From IMG/VR virus record IMGVR_UViG_2675903417_000003: a stretch of DNA of 46,078 nt; one strand, written 5' to 3'. This DNA comes from a virus (taxonomy: Duplodnaviria > Heunggongvirae > Uroviricota > Caudoviricetes). This document shows, piece after piece, positions 1 through 43,226 of this stretch. Each line of letters starts with the position of its first letter. Position 1 is the first letter of the stretch. Made by a program: the position numbers and the translations under genes. The notes under the pieces were generated by a model. The model searched no databases and was not told the DNA's origin. It saw nothing but the letters and a program-made list of their open reading frames with translations.

Positions 1-1605
<1,605 letters not shown>

Positions 1606-5550: not shown

Positions 5551-5973
5551 GTGGCAAAAGTTTTTACACAAGAAGAGCGGGAAAAAATTAAATGGCAGGT
5601 GGTGGAACTCGTGCGCCAGAGCGGCCGTGAGACGTTACGGCAACTGGAAGCTAAAACAGGTGCGACTAGATATCTGATGAGCGTTCTTGCCAGAGAGCTG
5701 GTAGCCAGTGGCGATGTATACAACTCCGGCTACGGGTTATTCCCCTCTGAACAGGCGCGTAAGGACTGGCAAAACGCCCGCAAAAAACTCTCGAGGGCAA
5801 AGGTGAAGAAACCTGCTGTGGTTGATCCGGACCTTATCTGGTCATCACCTGACGGAGAAATACGTCGCTACGACAGTCGCCTAAACATAATCTGTCGCGA
5901 GTGCCGGAAGAGCGAAGTTATGCAGCGCATACTGGCTTTCTATCAGGGTAATTTTCAGGACGTGGCGCAGTGA
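5551..5973 (+). CDS. Hypothetical protein (possible winged-helix), translationally coupled to the downstream methyltransferase
   Basis: 140-aa ORF with GTG start and AAGGGGGA Shine-Dalgarno; GTGA overlap with the next gene. Confidence 0.55.
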   Translation: MAKVFTQEEREKIKWQVVELVRQSGRETLRQLEAKTGATRYLMSVLARELVASGDVYNSGYGLFPSEQARKDWQNARKKLSRAKVKKPAVVDPDLIWSSPDGEIRRYDSRLNIICRECRKSEVMQRILAFYQGNFQDVAQ

Positions 5974-6326
5974 GTGCACCGGCAACCATTCTTGATATGT
6001 GCTGTGGCAGCCGCATGTTCTGGTTCGATAAGTCTGACGAACGGGCGATATTCAGCGATATCAGAAAAGAAGGATACACATTACGCAATGGGAGACGCTT
6101 GATTATCAGCCCTGACATTATCGCAGATTTTCGTGCATTATCATTTGCAGACGCATCTTTTTCGATGGTTGTATTAGACCCTCCGCATCTTGAGAGTGTT
6201 GGTGATAACGCCTGGATGGGAAAGAAATATGGACGGCTGAATAAAGATGCCTGGCGTGATGATTCGCGACAGAGATTTAAAGAAGCCTTTCGGGTGTTGA
6301 GGCCGCACGGCGTTCTGATTTTTTAA
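5970..6326 (+). CDS. SAM-dependent methyltransferase (N6-adenine/N4-cytosine type), probably truncated by a premature TAA
   Basis: Motif I-like DMCCGSRMF and motif IV VVLDPPHL; only 118 aa; the frame stays open for 29 more codons after the TAA at 6324-6326. Confidence 0.55.
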   Translation: MSAPATILDMCCGSRMFWFDKSDERAIFSDIRKEGYTLRNGRRLIISPDIIADFRALSFADASFSMVVLDPPHLESVGDNAWMGKKYGRLNKDAWRDDSRQRFKEAFRVLRPHGVLIF

Positions 6327-6588
6327 TGGAATGAAACGCAAATACCGGTAAGCCAGATTCTGGCACTGACAGACAGAAAACCTGTTATCTGTCAACGAAC
6401 AGGGAAAAAACGATAAAACCCACTGGATTATTTTTATGAAAGAGGCATCCAGTGAGTAGATTCGTAAGGCTACAGATACGTATATCTGAATAATTAAATT
6501 CAGTTCTGTAAATAAAATTTAATCCTTAACCGGATGGATTTCTGCACCCTCAGAACATCAGGAGGCCGCCCGAAAGGGCGGTAGTGAA

Positions 6589-6699
6589 ATGCGAAAGTTC
6601 AAAATTATTATTGAAACGGGAATAGCTGGTGGAGATTTTGAGGATGTATTCGAAGTGGACGATGACGCAACACCTGAGGAAATTCATGACGGAGCATAA
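6589..6699 (+). CDS. Small ORF (36 aa), first of three tandem small ORFs
   Basis: MRKFKIIIETGIAGGDFEDVFEVDDDATPEEIHDGA; preceded by GGAGG and a GCCGCCC-GAAA-GGGCGG hairpin; frame continues 23 codons beyond the TAA. Confidence 0.3.
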   Translation: MRKFKIIIETGIAGGDFEDVFEVDDDATPEEIHDGA

Positions 6700-6748
6700 G
6701 AAATTTTCTTTAACTACTGCAATTACTCATACCACGAAATAAAAGACG

Positions 6749-6940
6749 ATGAGGAAGAACAAGGTGGCTGATTTTTGTTCAGCTAAATATAACATCAGTT
6801 TTGAAGAGCGGGATGAACTATTAATGGACTATGGTGAGTTACGCGGTGGAAGTGCTGCTGATGTCGAATCCTAGCGTGATGACTATGAAGCGGGAAAAAC
6901 TCCGGTCGAAGCATATTGTGATGAGTGGGGCGATGAATGA
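6749..6940 (+). pseudogene. Small acidic ORF interrupted by an in-frame TAG (6872-6874)
   Basis: MRKNKVADFCSAKYNISFEERDELLMDYGELRGGSAADVES-TAG-RDDYEAGKTPVEAYCDEWGDE; ATGA overlap with the next ORF. Confidence 0.35.
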
Positions 6941-7224
6941 GCGAGATTAATTATCAGGAAGGGCATGAAACGGCGGGGCAAGCAAAACCAGTGGCATGGC
7001 GATATCGCTACGTGAAAAAAGGCGTTACGGACTTTCAGGGGAAGTAGTGGTCTGGTGACTGGAAATATGTACCGAAAAAAGAGGATTGTAACGACAGGCC
7101 GAACTATCAAATTCAGGCCTTATTCACTGCCTCACCAGTCCCAGTTACATCAGAAGAACTGGTTAAAGCTGTGCACTTTTATGAACAACTAAAACGCGAA
7201 AATCCACCAACATCCGGCAACTAG
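6937..7224 (+). pseudogene. Small ORF interrupted by an in-frame TAG (7045-7047)
   Basis: MSEINYQEGHETAGQAKPVAWRYRYVKKGVTDFQGK-TAG-WSGDWKYVPKKEDCNDRPNYQIQALFTASPVPVTSEELVKAVHFYEQLKRENPPTSGN; 95 codons in one frame. Confidence 0.35.
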
Positions 7225-7478
7225 ATTAATGGATTAACTATGTCGGTTAAACGACCAGCCAACTGAAAAAGCGGAAACCTGATTACAGGTTGCCAGATAA
7301 GGCAATGAGCTACCTGGCGCGGAACGGACTGATAAGTATGGGGAATGTTTTACGATGAACCTTTAGACTAAAGAGTTTGTAACGCTATGTAAGTGATTTT
7401 TTCTGGTTTAGATATTTATATGTCCGGCCAAATTGAGGTGTGTTTAAATGTAATTGCACATTGATTGTAGGAGGAATA

Positions 7479-7658
7479 ATGAAAAACGCATTGCAGTTTT
7501 TGTTTGTTGCGTTCTGGTTGTTCGCATCATGTATGCCCATCATCTTCACAGCAAGGTATATGGAAAAAGTTGATGTTTTGATATTAATATTTGGATATAT
7601 AAATGCCCTTTTTTTAGGGGTGTTCATGGCGGTCATGTGCATTGAATACTGGCGGTAA
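7479..7658 (+). CDS. Small membrane protein (59 aa, two predicted TM segments)
   Basis: MKNALQFLFVAFWLFASCMPIIFTARYMEKVDVLILIFGYINALFLGVFMAVMCIEYWR; strong GGAGG Shine-Dalgarno 5 nt upstream. Confidence 0.5.
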   Translation: MKNALQFLFVAFWLFASCMPIIFTARYMEKVDVLILIFGYINALFLGVFMAVMCIEYWR

Positions 7659-7929
7659 ATACAGCGAACTCCATTGGTTTAGTTGGATATTTACTGTGCT
7701 GGACAAAAACGGTTTGCGGGGAAATCTTAGTTAAGTAGAATGACTGCGGGTGCTTGAGGCTATCTGCCTCGGGCATGGACACCAACGGCAGATAGAGAAA
7801 AGCCCCAGTTAACATTACGCGTCCTGCAAGACGCTTAACATTAATCTGAGGCCAATTTCATGCTAGACACATGTAGGTTAGCCTCTTACGTGCCGAAAGG
7901 CACGGAGAAGCAGGCTATTGTTAACACCA

Positions 7930-9560
7930 AGCTGTAATGTCCCCTTTGAACCATTCTAAAATGTCCCCAGACAATTCTCTGGGGGATTTTTCATGATCAA
8001 AGAGACTGTTACGATGAGTCATAAGGAACTCCACCGACTTCAGATTATTCAGGAACAAGCTGCGGCACGCATTGGCATTTCTATTCGGCAGGTTAAACGT
8101 CTGGTGCAACGGTATAGAAATGAAGGGCCTTCTGGTCTGGTTTCCCACCGACGTGGAAAGCGTCCTAATAGTTCCTTTTCTACTGAATTCAGAGCAACAG
8201 TAATTTCACTCCTCAAAGGCCGTTACGCTGATTTTGGACCTACGTTTGCGTGCGAAAAATTGCGCGAGATACACGGTTTATCTTTATCCGTTGAAACTCT
8301 CAGAAAGTGGATGATAGAAGAGGGGTTATGGCGTGAACGCCGTCGTAAAATTGCCCGTATATATCAACGCCGCATGCGACGACCATCTTACGGTGAACTG
8401 ATCCAGATTGATGGCTCACCTCATGACTGGTTTGAAAATCGAGGCCCCAGATGTACACTGATCGTTTTCATTGATGATGCCACCAGTGCGTTGATGGCGT
8501 TGCGTTTTGTGCCTGCTGAAACAACCCGGGCTTACATGGAAACCCTCCGGGGTTACCTTAATGATCATGGCGTACCGCTCGCTCTCTACTCTGATAGACA
8601 CAGTATATTCAGGGTAAATAACCCAGAGCGGGAAGGTGAGCTGACCCAGTTCACTCGTGCGATAAAGACACTGGGCATCGAGCCAATCCATGCCAACAGC
8701 CCGCAGGCAAAAGGGCGGGTAGAGCGCGCCAATCAGACACTACAGGACAGGCTGGTCAAAGAAATGCGGCTTCAGAATATCAGTGATATTGAAACAGCAA
8801 ATGCATGGTTGCCGACCTTTATTGAAGCCTATAACAACCGGTTCGCTACGTCGCCTCGTACTACTGATAATGCTCATCTTGATGTGCACCATTCTGAAGA
8901 GGAACTGGGTTATATCTTCAGCCTACAGGCGAAGCGCGTTCTGTCTAAAAATCTCACTTTCCAGTACAAAAGCAGTGCGTTTCAGGTACGCAGTGAGGGC
9001 CGGGGATATCGACTTAGGCATTCGGTTGTTACTGTATGCGAGAACTTTGACGGTGAAATTAACGTTCTGTATGACGGGAAAGCGCTGGGCTGGGAAAAGT
9101 ATGTTGATGGCCCGGAGCCTATACCACTGGATGATGAAAAGAGTGTCCATGAACGAGTGGATAATGCCCGTATTGATTTACGCTCAAAATACTATGTTAA
9201 ACCTAAAGCTGACCATCCCTGGCTTACGCGCCGAACGCAAAGTCATCAGCAAGTTAAGCCCCCGAAGTTACCTAAAAAGAAGCCTGATCCCGATAAAAAA
9301 GATTGAAACCAAGATCGATTCGGTTGAGTGCATATCCATTCATAGGGTAGATTCTTAAGTCGCGTTTCTGGTGTTCATTTTCGGGTGGTTTGTTACTTGT
9401 TTTACCGGGGATATGCCAGAAACGCGCTGAGTCAGTCTGGGCGGTGCGCGTAATGAGGCGTTATGGTAAATAGCCTATGCTAATGTCCGCTAAGAGCAAG
9501 AAGCGGAAGTTGGCAGTTTTGTGGACTGTCCCCACAAAAGTGACTACAGAAATAGTTGCA
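7930..9560 (+). mobile_element. Insertion element carrying a DDE transposase (boundaries approximate, terminal repeats not resolved)
   Basis: Single 437-aa rve-type transposase inserted between the replication region and flxA. Confidence 0.4.
7993..9306 (+). CDS. DDE transposase with N-terminal HTH and rve integrase catalytic core
   Basis: 437 aa; HTH ISIRQVKRLVQRYRNEG; catalytic motifs IQIDGSPHDW, LYSDRHSIF and GRVERANQTLQDRL. Confidence 0.8.
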   Translation: MIKETVTMSHKELHRLQIIQEQAAARIGISIRQVKRLVQRYRNEGPSGLVSHRRGKRPNSSFSTEFRATVISLLKGRYADFGPTFACEKLREIHGLSLSVETLRKWMIEEGLWRERRRKIARIYQRRMRRPSYGELIQIDGSPHDWFENRGPRCTLIVFIDDATSALMALRFVPAETTRAYMETLRGYLNDHGVPLALYSDRHSIFRVNNPEREGELTQFTRAIKTLGIEPIHANSPQAKGRVERANQTLQDRLVKEMRLQNISDIETANAWLPTFIEAYNNRFATSPRTTDNAHLDVHHSEEELGYIFSLQAKRVLSKNLTFQYKSSAFQVRSEGRGYRLRHSVVTVCENFDGEINVLYDGKALGWEKYVDGPEPIPLDDEKSVHERVDNARIDLRSKYYVKPKADHPWLTRRTQSHQQVKPPKLPKKKPDPDKKD

Positions 9561-30062: not shown

Positions 30063-30478
30063 GTTTTGCCCTGAAACTGGCGCGTGAGATGGGGCGACCC
30101 GACTGGCGTGCCATGCTTGCCGGGATGTCATCCACGGAGTATGCCGACTGGCACCGCTTTTACAGTACCCATTATTTTCATGATGTTCTGCTGGATATGC
30201 ACTTTTCCGGGCTGACGTACACCGTGCTCAGCCTGTTTTTCAGCGATCCGGATATGCATCCGCTGGATTTCAGTCTGCTGAACCGGCGCGAGGCTGACGA
30301 AGAGCCTGAAGATGATGTGCTGATGCAGAAAGCGGCAGGGCTTGCCGGAGGTGTCCGCTTTGGCCCGGACGGGAATGAAGTTATCCCCGCTTCCCCGGAT
30401 GTGGCGGACATGACGGAGGATGACGTAATGCTGATGACAGTATCAGAAGGGATCGCAGGAGGAGTCCGGTATGGCTGA
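30042..30478 (+). CDS. T: T portion of the G-T tail assembly chaperone, expressed as a G-T fusion by -1 programmed frameshift
   Basis: The -1 frame after GGGAAAG reads ...GKVFDGELSFALKLAREMGRPDWRAMLAGM... to a stop at 30478; no independent start. Confidence 0.75.
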
Positions 30479-33030
30479 ACCGGTAGGCGATCTGGTCGTT
30501 GATTTGAGTCTGGATGCGGCCAGATTTGACGAGCAGATGGCCAGAGTCAGGCGTCATTTTTCCGGTACGGAAAGTGATGCGAAAAAAACAGCGGCAGTCG
30601 TTGAACAGTCGCTGAGCCGACAGGCGCTGGCTGCACAGAAAGCGGGGATTTCCGTCGGGCAGTATAAAGCCGCCATGCGTATGCTGCCTGCACAGTTCAC
30701 CGACGTGGCCACGCAGCTTGCAGGCGGGCAAAGTCCGTGGCTGATCCTGCTGCAACAGGGGGGGCAGGTGAAGGACTCCTTCGGCGGGATGATCCCCATG
30801 TTCAGGGGGCTTGCCGGTGCGATCACCCTGCCGATGGTGGGGGCCACCTCGCTGGCGGTGGCGACCGGTGCGCTGGCGTATGCCTGGTATCAGGGCAACT
30901 CAACCCTGTCCGATTTCAACAAAACGCTGGTCCTTTCCGGCAATCAGGCGGGACTGACGGCAGATCGTATGCTGGTCCTGTCCAGAGCCGGGCAGGCGGC
31001 AGGGCTGACGTTTAACCAGACCAGCGAGTCACTCAGCGCACTGGTTAAGGCGGGGGTAAGCGGTGAGGCTCAGATTGCGTCCATCAGCCAGAGTGTGGCG
31101 CGTTTCTCCTCTGCATCCGGCGTGGAGGTGGACAAGGTCGCTGAAGCCTTCGGGAAGCTGACCACAGACCCGACGTCGGGGCTGACGGCGATGGCACGCC
31201 AGTTCCATAACGTGACGGCGGAGCAGATTGCGTATGTTGCTCAGTTGCAGCGTTCCGGCGATGAAGCCGGGGCATTGCAGGCGGCGAACGAGGCCGCAAC
31301 GAAAGGGTTTGATGACCAGACCCGCCGCCTGAAAGAGAACATGGGCACGCTGGAGACCTGGGCAGACAGGACTGCGCGGGCATTCAAATCCATGTGGTGC
31401 GGTGCTGGATATTGGTCGTCCTGATACCGCGCAGGAGATGCTGATTAAGGCAGAGGCTGCGTTTAAGAAAGCAGACGACATCTGGAATCTGCGCAAGGAT
31501 GATTATTTTGTTAACGATGAAGCGCGGGCGCGTTACTGGGATGATCGTGAAAAGGCCCGTCTTGCGCTTGAAGCCGCCCGAAAGAAGGCTGAGCAGCAGA
31601 CTCAACAGGACAAAAATGCGCAGCAGCAGAGCGATACCGAAGCGTCACGGCTGAAATATACCGAAGAGGCGCAGAAGGCTTACGAACGGCTGCAGACGCC
31701 GCTGGAGAAATATACCGCCCGTCAGGAAGAACTGAACAAGGCACTGAAAGACGGGAAAATCCTGCAGGCGGATTACAACACGCTGATGGCGGCGGCGAAA
31801 AAGGATTATGAAGCGACGCTGAAAAAGCCGAAACAGTCCGGCGTGAAGGTGTCTGCGGGCGATCGTCAGGAAGACAGTGCTCATGCTGCCCTGCTGACGC
31901 TTCAGGCAGAACTCCGGACGCTGGAGAAGCATGCCGGAGCAAATGAGAAAATCAGCCAGCAGCGCCGGGATTTGTGGAAGGCGGAGAGTCAGTTCGCGGT
32001 ACTGGAGGAGGCGGCGCAACGTCGCCAGCTGTCTGCACAGGAGAAATCCCTGCTGGCGCATAAAGATGAGACGCTGGAGTACAAACGCCAGCTGGCTGCA
32101 CTTGGCGACAAGGTTACGTATCAGGAGCGCCTGAACGCGCTGGCGCAGCAGGCGGATAAATTCGCACAGCAGCAACGGGCAAAACGGGCCGCCATTGATG
32201 CGAAAAGCCGGGGGCTGACTGACCGGCAGGCAGAACGGGAAGCCACGGAACAGCGCCTGAAGGAACAGTATGGCGATAATCCGCTGGCGCTGAATAACGT
32301 CATGTCAGAGCAGAAAAAGACCTGGGCGGCTGAAGACCAGCTTCGCGGGAACTGGATGGCAGGCCTGAAGTCCGGCTGGAGTGAGTGGGAAGAGAGCGCC
32401 ACGGACAGTATGTCGCAGGTAAAAAGTGCAGCCACGCAGACCTTTGATGGTATTGCACAGAATATGGCAGCTATGCTGACCGGCAGTGAGCAGAACTGGC
32501 GCAGCTTCACCCGTTCCGTGCTGTCCATGATGACAGAAATTCTGCTTAAGCAGGCAATGGTGGGGATTGTCGGGAGTATCGGCAGCGCCATTGGCGGGGG
32601 TGTTGGTGGCGGCGCATCCGCGTCAGGCGGTACAGCCATTCAGGCCGCTGCGGCGAAATTCCATTTTGCAACCGGAGGATTTACGGGAACCGGCGGCAAA
32701 TATGAGCCAGCGGGGATTGTTCACCGTGGTGAGTTTGTCTTCACGAAGGAGGCAACCAGCCGGATTGGCGTGGGGAATCTTTACCGGCTGATGCGCGGCT
32801 ATGCCACCGGCGGTTATGTCGGTACACCGGGCAGCATGGCAGACAGCCGGTCGCAGGCGTCCGGGACGTTTGAGCAGAATAACCATGTGGTGATTAACAA
32901 CGACGGCACGAACGGGCAGATAGGTCCGGCTGCTCTGAAGGCGGTGTATGACATGGCCCGCAAGGGTGCCCGTGATGAAATTCAGACACAGATGCGTGAT
33001 GGTGGCCTGTTCTCCGGAGGTGGACGATGA
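30471..33030 (+). pseudogene. H: Tail tape-measure protein H, split by a frameshift near 31397
   Basis: ORFs 30471..31424 (317 aa) and 31402..33030 (542 aa) together match an ~853-aa tape measure; the junction ...AFKSMW / LDIGRPDTAQEM is consistent with a 2-bp deletion. Confidence 0.8.
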
Positions 33031-42651: not shown

Positions 42652-43226
42652 TGGCATTCAGAATGAGTGAACAACCACGGACCATAAAAATTTATAATCT
42701 GCTGGCCGGAACTAATGAATTTATTGGTGAAGGTGATGCATATATTCCGCCTCATACAGGTCTGCCAGCAAACAGTACCGATATTGCACCGCCAGATATT
42801 CCGGCTGGCTTCGTGGCTGTTTTCAACAGTGATGAGTCATCGTGGCATCTCGTTGAAGATCATCGGGGTAAAACGGTTTATGACGTGGCTTCCGGCGACG
42901 CGTTATTTATTTCTGAACTCGGTCCGTTACCGGAAAATGTTACCTGGTTATCGCCGGAAGGGGAGTTTCAGAAGTGGAACGGCACAGCCTGGGTGAAGGA
43001 TACGGAAGCAGAAAAACTGTTCCGGATCCGGGAGGCGGAAGAAACAAAAAACAACCTGATGCAGGTAGCCAGTGAGCATATTGCGCCGCTTCAGGATGCT
43101 GCAGATCTGGAAATTGCAACGGAGGAAGAAATCTCGTTGCTGGAAGCATGGAAAAAGTATCGGGTATTGCTGAACCGTGTTGATACGTCAACTGCACAGG
43201 ATATTGAATGGCCAGCACTGCCGTAG
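42651..43226 (+). CDS. tfa: Tail fiber assembly protein Tfa
   Basis: 191 aa [48 protein letters not shown]... Confidence 0.9.

Follow-up and report, generated by a model that had tools for sequence, protein, structure and literature searches.

The window, i.e., the whole stretch of 46,078 nucleotides of viral DNA analyzed here (IMG/VR record IMGVR_UViG_2675903417_000003), carries a row of adjacent genes that are each interrupted by stop codons. The explanation that we favor, with a probability of about 0.93, is that three consecutive accessory genes of the early operon of Qin, an old and largely inactive prophage of Escherichia coli, or four if the upstream methyltransferase gene is counted, were killed by ordinary point mutations and have been drifting neutrally. 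This reading is drawn from sequence comparison: relatives of the window encode the same genes without interruption, and the lesions can be separated from each other among prophages. The three small genes, referred to as ORF1, ORF2, and ORF3, overlap and are co-oriented, and are presumably neither expressed nor functional. In part, this was already known, as RefSeq (PGAP) marks two of the three on identical DNA as pseudogenes with an “internal stop.” The affected genes are:

5970–6459, plus strand: class I SAM-dependent DNA methyltransferase, pseudogene; TAA at 6324–6326 (codon 119) and a frameshift near 6405–6415
6589–6771, plus strand: ORF1, DUF7167/phrog_1997 family, 60 codons; TAA at 6697–6699 (codon 37)
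6764–6940, plus strand: ORF2, phrog_519-related, 58 codons; TAG at 6872–6874 (codon 37)
6937–7358, plus strand: ORF3, phrog_660 family, 171 aa when intact; two TAGs, deletions of 90 nt and 4 nt

Homology Across the Stop Codons

An earlier note on this DNA, made from the sequence alone, had described an in-frame TAA, TAG, and TAG in three tandem ORFs, and all three are indeed present (at 6697–6699, 6872–6874, and 7045–7047), as is the ATGA at 6937–6940 by which the second and third ORF overlap. ORF1 begins with ATG at 6589 and continues after its TAA with 23 in-frame sense codons to a TGA at 6769–6771. ORF2 continues for 21 in-frame codons to a TGA at 6938–6940, and ORF3, starting with ATG at 6937, for 58 codons from its first TAG to the TAG at 7222–7224. 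Such continuity of the reading frame is in itself weak evidence for a single gene: by (61/64)^n, stop-free stretches of these lengths arise in random sequence with probabilities of about 0.33, 0.36, and 0.06. Since chance continuity is not improbable, evidence from outside the window is needed, and homology settles the question in favor of single genes. The earlier note had considered that the two halves of each ORF might be unrelated and the shared frame coincidental; however, both halves align to one uninterrupted gene in relatives, with intact orthologues of 60, 58, and 171 aa.

Intact relatives are readily found. When the 721-nt block 6540–7260 was searched against 5,426 complete E. coli genomes, matches were obtained in 2,523 of them, and 520 records matched at ≥99% identity. 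A prophage of an ST131 strain (L003), which is about 90% identical to the window, has three uninterrupted, overlapping genes for a DUF7167 protein of 60 aa and two hypothetical proteins of 58 and 171 aa, and the same intact arrangement is present in the phage records vB_EcoS-640R1 and vB_EcoS-689R5. Intact orthologues with sense codons at the stop sites are also listed for the phage loci L007–L009. The earlier note had suggested looking for exactly such sense codons in orthologous loci, and they are AAA, TGG, and CAG or CCG, respectively. In alignments and among 161 fetched loci, every intact copy of ORF1 has AAA (Lys) at the stop site, and relatives have TGG (Trp) at that of ORF2. The ORF3 site is variable (CCG, CAG, ATG, CTG, TGG, TCG, or GCG), with CAG, e.g., in L009, being one transition away from TAG. 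At the second TAG of ORF3, L003 has CAG. Each stop is therefore one substitution away from a sense codon of relatives (AAA to TAA, TGG to TAG, and CAG to TAG twice).

The triple-stop allele itself is present at ≥99% identity in about 500 complete E. coli genomes, which, going by strain names, we take to span several phylogroups. A sequencing or assembly artefact, according to which the stops would be errors of this one window, is ruled out by the recurrence of the identical sequence with all stops in hundreds of independent assemblies, both complete genomes and IMG/VR viral contigs.

The intact ORF1 protein matches phrog_1997 over its entire length (positions 1–57 of 57), and an intact orthologue matches all 60 positions of the Pfam profile DUF7167 (PF23768) with 52.1 bits at a cut-off of 24.4. 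The window copy shares about 90% protein identity with the intact DUF7167 orthologue, but is interrupted at codon 37, and PGAP labels the identical DNA “DUF7167 family protein, internal stop.” ORF1 is the only one of the three intact proteins with a Pfam match, none of the three has a match in NCBIfam, and a full-text literature search returned nothing on DUF7167 or PhiR42. Upstream of ORF1 lies a putative RNA structure:

6565–6582, plus strand: hairpin of 7 bp (GGCCGCC-CGAA... pairing) with a GAAA tetraloop, from RNA folding

The hairpin is situated between a Shine-Dalgarno-like AGGAGG motif (6559–6564) and the ATG of ORF1 at 6589, which is 25 nt downstream of that motif. Folding of 6550–6600 yields −16.9 kcal/mol (z = −3.4), and the hairpin sequence is kept in relatives. 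It might serve to bring the Shine-Dalgarno motif and the start codon together, or might be a candidate RNA stability element.

The boundaries of ORF2 and ORF3 differ from those that were first proposed. For the ORF placed at 6749–6940, the internal TAG and the end at 6940 stand, but the start does not: the orthologous start is at 6764 (ATG in intact relatives, GTG in the window), where it overlaps the stop of ORF1, while the ATG at 6749 is not present in relatives in nucleotide alignments. The intact ORF2 protein matches the C-terminal part of phrog_519, and ORF2 is without any RefSeq annotation in identical genomes. For the ORF placed at 6937–7224, start and internal TAG are correct, but its apparent terminator at 7222–7224 is the second nonsense codon mentioned above, and the pseudogene extends to 7358. 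Within this span, 90 nt are deleted in frame at 7200/7201, and the loss of 4 nt near 7255 moves the C-terminus (…SQLKKRKPDYRLPDKAMSYLARNGLISMGNVLR, followed by the stop) into another frame, with 7358 as its last position. PGAP annotates the same span, 6937–7358, as “hypothetical protein, frameshifted; internal stop” in a 100% identical genome. The intact protein matches positions 34–193 of 193 of phrog_660. In Rac-type prophages (L002 and L007), ORF3 contains, besides TAG, an AA insertion in its A6 run at the equivalent of ~7015; the resulting out-of-frame ORF of 85 aa was annotated as a gene by the depositors of the phage record.

A Methyltransferase Pseudogene Upstream

The earlier note had confined the decay to the three small ORFs. 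These are indeed affected, but the decay extends beyond them to the methyltransferase gene with its in-frame TAA at 6324–6326. This gene appears as an ORF of 118 aa (5970–6326); in the same frame, the sequence after the TAA reads WNETQIPVSQILALTDRKPVICQRTGKKR. According to frame analysis, the C-terminus (KTHWIIFMKEASSE, followed by the stop) has to be read in the +1 frame, up to 6459, and the last ~15 residues of the methyltransferase (KTHWIIF…) are found in this frame. In a tblastn search, residues 7–146 of the read-through product align to 244 phage methyltransferases, and alignment with the enzymes of phages ZF40, Acba_1, and A118 places the TAA at the invariant Lys of LIFKWNETQ. For strain PCP06173, PGAP describes the gene as “frameshifted; internal stop,” whereas elsewhere, including in identical genomes, the 118-aa stub is called an intact gene. 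Judged by these alignments, what is annotated as a “class I SAM-dependent methyltransferase” of 118 aa is not an intact gene, but a pseudogene that has been truncated. Together with ORF1–ORF3, this amounts to four consecutive dead genes between 5970 and 7358, with five nonsense codons, two frameshifts, and one deletion, followed by an IS element:

7993–9306, plus strand: transposase ORF of 437 aa, ISNCY or IS1202-like (ISEsa1 family) by PGAP names

On the right, the IS insertion delimits the decayed block; it belongs to the context of the block rather than to the three ORFs. Between block and transposase, there is an ORF for a hydrophobic protein of 72 aa without a Pfam match (7440–7658) and, directly upstream of the transposase ORF, an Rfam element of the sok/hok type (7748–7919, plus strand, 104 bits). 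A second hok/sok locus of the prophage appears to abut the IS insertion, or to be cut by it. A scan of 5900–8000 for promoters and terminators returned counts at or near the expectation from shuffled sequence.

The Window as a Long Form of Prophage Qin

By gene content and order, the window is Qin, a cryptic lambdoid prophage of E. coli, in a full-length form. Over its first 25 kb, the window shares 99.9% identity with E. coli UC4315, and 99.3% with a deposited prophage, PhiR42_1, of strain ECOR13. The annotation of the 99.9% identical genome and Rfam place dicB, DicF, dicA, dicC, relBE, hokD, flxA, and the csp genes (cspB, cspF, cspI) in Qin order, together with nohA and next to ydfJ. In full, PGAP lists for UC4315 ydfJ, ydfK, and pinQ, then tail, head, and terminase genes and nohA; cspI, cspB, cspF, and lysis genes; a Q-like antiterminator, ydfU, rem, hokD, relBE, ydfV, flxA, and ydfW; the ISNCY transposase, two pseudogenes, the methyltransferase, and a DUF977 gene; a replication gene, a ydaT-like gene, dicC, and a dicA-like repressor; and finally ydfA, ydfB, ydfC, dicB, ydfD, and an exonuclease. 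Rfam matches in the window comprise DicF, two cspA elements, and one sok element.

Other features were seen elsewhere in the window. The tail tape-measure gene (30471–33030) is split into two ORFs of 317 and 542 aa, and a 2-nt gap relative to the intact gene of 2,562 nt in the 99.9% identical UC4315 indicates that this structural gene is frameshifted in the window copy. At the start of the window (37–123, plus strand), inside or beside the exonuclease end of the prophage, Rfam reports the catalytic domain V–VI region of a group II intron (65 bits). Within the tail-fibre-assembly region, Rfam also reports an IS009 RNA (42994–43192, plus strand, 221 bits); in UC4315, the tail-fibre-assembly gene is instead interrupted by an IS3 element.

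Stepwise or Mosaic Decay

The distribution of the lesions was studied in 161 sampled loci, which were extracted by BLAST and grouped according to the codon found at each of the four stop sites of ORF1–ORF3. The combination TAA/TAG/TAG/TAG occurs in at least 30 of the 161 loci, AAA/TGG/TAG/CTG in 29, and AAA/TGG/TAG/TAG in 5. A dead ORF3 beside intact ORF1 and ORF2 is thus present in at least 34 sampled loci, which implies that the decay was stepwise or mosaic. On the Qin backbone, in contrast, the ORF1 TAA and the ORF2 TAG always co-occur among the sampled loci, and only together with the ORF3 lesions. In the loci with a dead ORF3 and intact ORF1 and ORF2, ORF3 is 96–99% identical to the window, and 96–100% if the DNA downstream is included, whereas ORF1–ORF2 are only 88–89% identical, pointing to a mosaic recombination junction near 6940. 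From this pattern, the dead ORF3 module would either predate the lesions of ORF1 and ORF2, or have arrived separately.

A query in which all three stops had been repaired still found the triple-stop allele as its best match among 5,426 complete E. coli genomes, at 99.4% identity, which equals the four repaired bases. In this search of complete E. coli genomes, no intermediate emerged on the Qin backbone in which one of ORF1 and ORF2 has its stop and the other does not, and this counts against the favored reading. The proposal of the earlier note, i.e., independent nonsense mutations and stepwise pseudogenisation, is nevertheless borne out by the sense codons in orthologues and by the separability of the lesions among the sampled prophages.

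Decay has continued within the stop-bearing clade of 32 members. At the ORF2 site, the TAG has become a TAA in one locus (L068), three independent additional indels have occurred in ORF3 (at 6975, 7014, and 7021), and ORF1–ORF3 show about 11 nonsynonymous versus 5 synonymous polymorphisms. Although the numbers are small, these secondary lesions and the near-neutral pattern of substitutions all point to relaxed constraint, and none suggests that the ambers or the downstream halves are being kept. A further observation counts against the pseudogene account: the triple-stop allele is very uniform, with less divergence than would naively be expected of ancient neutral DNA.

Amber Suppression and Read-Through as an Improbable Alternative

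An entirely different possibility is that the ambers of ORF2 and ORF3 are decoded by a suppressor tRNA of host or phage, or by programmed read-through, and that full-length proteins are produced conditionally. This idea, raised as an alternative by the earlier note, draws on the fact that two consecutive first stops are TAG and that the frames of ORF1 and ORF2 are kept without indels. Moreover, the first TAG of ORF3 derives from CAG, and a supE-type glutamine suppressor would restore the residue of relatives such as L009. However, a scan of all 46 kb of the window with ARAGORN detects no tRNA gene, and no Rfam element lies within 6300–7400. The stops of ORF1 and of the methyltransferase are ochre (TAA) and would need a different suppressor, and in ORF3 the first TAG is followed by another, by the loss of 90 nt, and by a frameshift of 4 nt, the frameshifts being beyond the reach of any suppressor. 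Stops that are used for conditional expression should be conserved, with purifying selection acting downstream, but relatives have sense codons at these positions, and members of the clade have exchanged TAG for TAA or gained further frameshifts. Finally, TAG serves as an ordinary terminator of other genes in the same prophage. Suppressor-dependent expression is thereby largely refuted, and we consider it highly improbable. Reassignment of TAG was also considered and rejected: read in the standard code, 76% of the window is accounted for by 42 ORFs that are at least 110 aa long and do not overlap, and 4 of the 42 end in TAG.

Regular Stop Positions and Possible Selected Inactivation

A peculiarity of the decayed block is that the first stop is codon 37 in each of ORF1, ORF2, and ORF3, and that the four stops (6697, 6872, 7045, and 7222) are spaced by 175, 173, and 177 nt. 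In a simple simulation, in which nonsense-mutable codons were drawn at random, identical codons had a probability of about 2e-4, a value that was calculated post hoc. A common sequence motif around the four stops was not seen when the bases were read by eye. The mutation types differ (A to T, G to A, and C to T), and the ORF3 lesion has a history separate from those of ORF1 and ORF2. The codon-37 pattern is treated here as a coincidence; we have no other explanation for it and count it against the favored reading.

Regularity of this kind, as well as the clustering of the lesions, could alternatively mean that the silencing was not neutral. It is very unlikely that the genes were silenced by selection against harm, that a non-random process produced the regular stops, or that the 36-aa stubs are functional microproteins. 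The first of these, domestication, would have favored the nonsense mutations in a situation where leaky expression of intact early genes harms the host. The lesions are clustered in four adjacent genes, while PGAP annotates most of the 46-kb prophage outside the block as intact in UC4315. Across about 500 genomes, the allele is fixed and hardly varies. Furthermore, phage vB_EcoM-606R7 (L008, 1725–1835) has TGG changed to TAG at codon 37 of ORF2, with ORF1 and ORF3 intact. This TAG sits on a different, partly mosaic backbone, and could be either a recurrent mutation, as selection might produce, or a short patch of recombination, which would explain it equally well. No function or evidence of toxicity is known for the genes, which are moreover uninterrupted in many other prophages that reside in E. 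coli, and the deletion of the whole segment in K-12 fits dispensability just as well. Selected inactivation is therefore given little credence, if slightly more than amber suppression.

A Scenario for the Decay of the Block

From what is generally known of lambdoid phages, the block would belong to the rightward early operon, which the DicA repressor would keep off in the lysogen. Under the neutral reading that we prefer, the affected genes would be accessory members of this operon, situated downstream of the replication genes. In intact relatives, they form a translationally coupled string: the stop of ORF1 overlaps the start of ORF2 (ATGGCTGA), and ORF2 and ORF3 are joined in the same manner by ATGA. 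In the Qin lineage, single-base substitutions changed AAA to TAA in both the methyltransferase and ORF1, TGG to TAG in ORF2, and, at two sites in ORF3, CAG to TAG. The predicted products would be cut to stubs of 36 aa, and the methyltransferase to 118 aa, and ORF3 would later have gained its 90-nt deletion and frameshift. From what is generally known of coupling and polarity, early termination should also lower the translation of coupled genes downstream. A plausible reason for the loss is that, in a repressed and non-propagating prophage, accessory genes would be under no selection.

The meaning of these observations hardly extends beyond annotation, and they have no bearing on alternative genetic decoding. 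They confirm the long-form Qin segment as a pseudogene cluster, and suggest corrections of the RefSeq type: ORF2 is an unannotated pseudogene, the methyltransferase stub is truncated, and the terminator of ORF3 is its second nonsense codon. In addition, the block neatly illustrates how a domesticated prophage can decay step by step and as a mosaic.

Comparison With Known Systems

Laboratory amber and ochre mutants, as well as TAG-recoded phages, likewise have in-frame TAG or TAA codons inside phage genes. The window differs from them by lacking a suppressor tRNA, by its mixed stops and frameshifts, by the use of TAG as a terminator, and by the restriction of the stops to one block. A close counterpart of the block is the intact trio of Rac-like and other lambdoid prophages (WP_029701087, the DUF7167 protein; WP_000753058; and WP_001289994), in which the same genes occur in the same order and with the same start/stop overlaps, at 88–92% nucleotide identity. 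The trio is uninterrupted, whereas the copies in the window have the TAA, TAG, and TAG and the further lesions of ORF3.

The prophage as a whole resembles Qin (Kim) of E. coli K-12 MG1655, annotated as “cryptic prophage Qin” in the RefSeq reference. Both have dicB, DicF, ydfC, ydfB, ydfA, dicA, and dicC in the same order on one side, and flxA, ydfV, relBE, hokD, rem, ydfU, the Q-like antiterminator, csp and lysis genes, and nohA on the other. In K-12, however, the decayed segment is absent and dicC, ydfX, and ydfW are adjacent, which implies that the segment holding the three ORFs was deleted there. The window, in contrast, represents a long form of Qin, which comprises the replication genes together with the decayed block and the IS element, and in which the structural module is almost complete.
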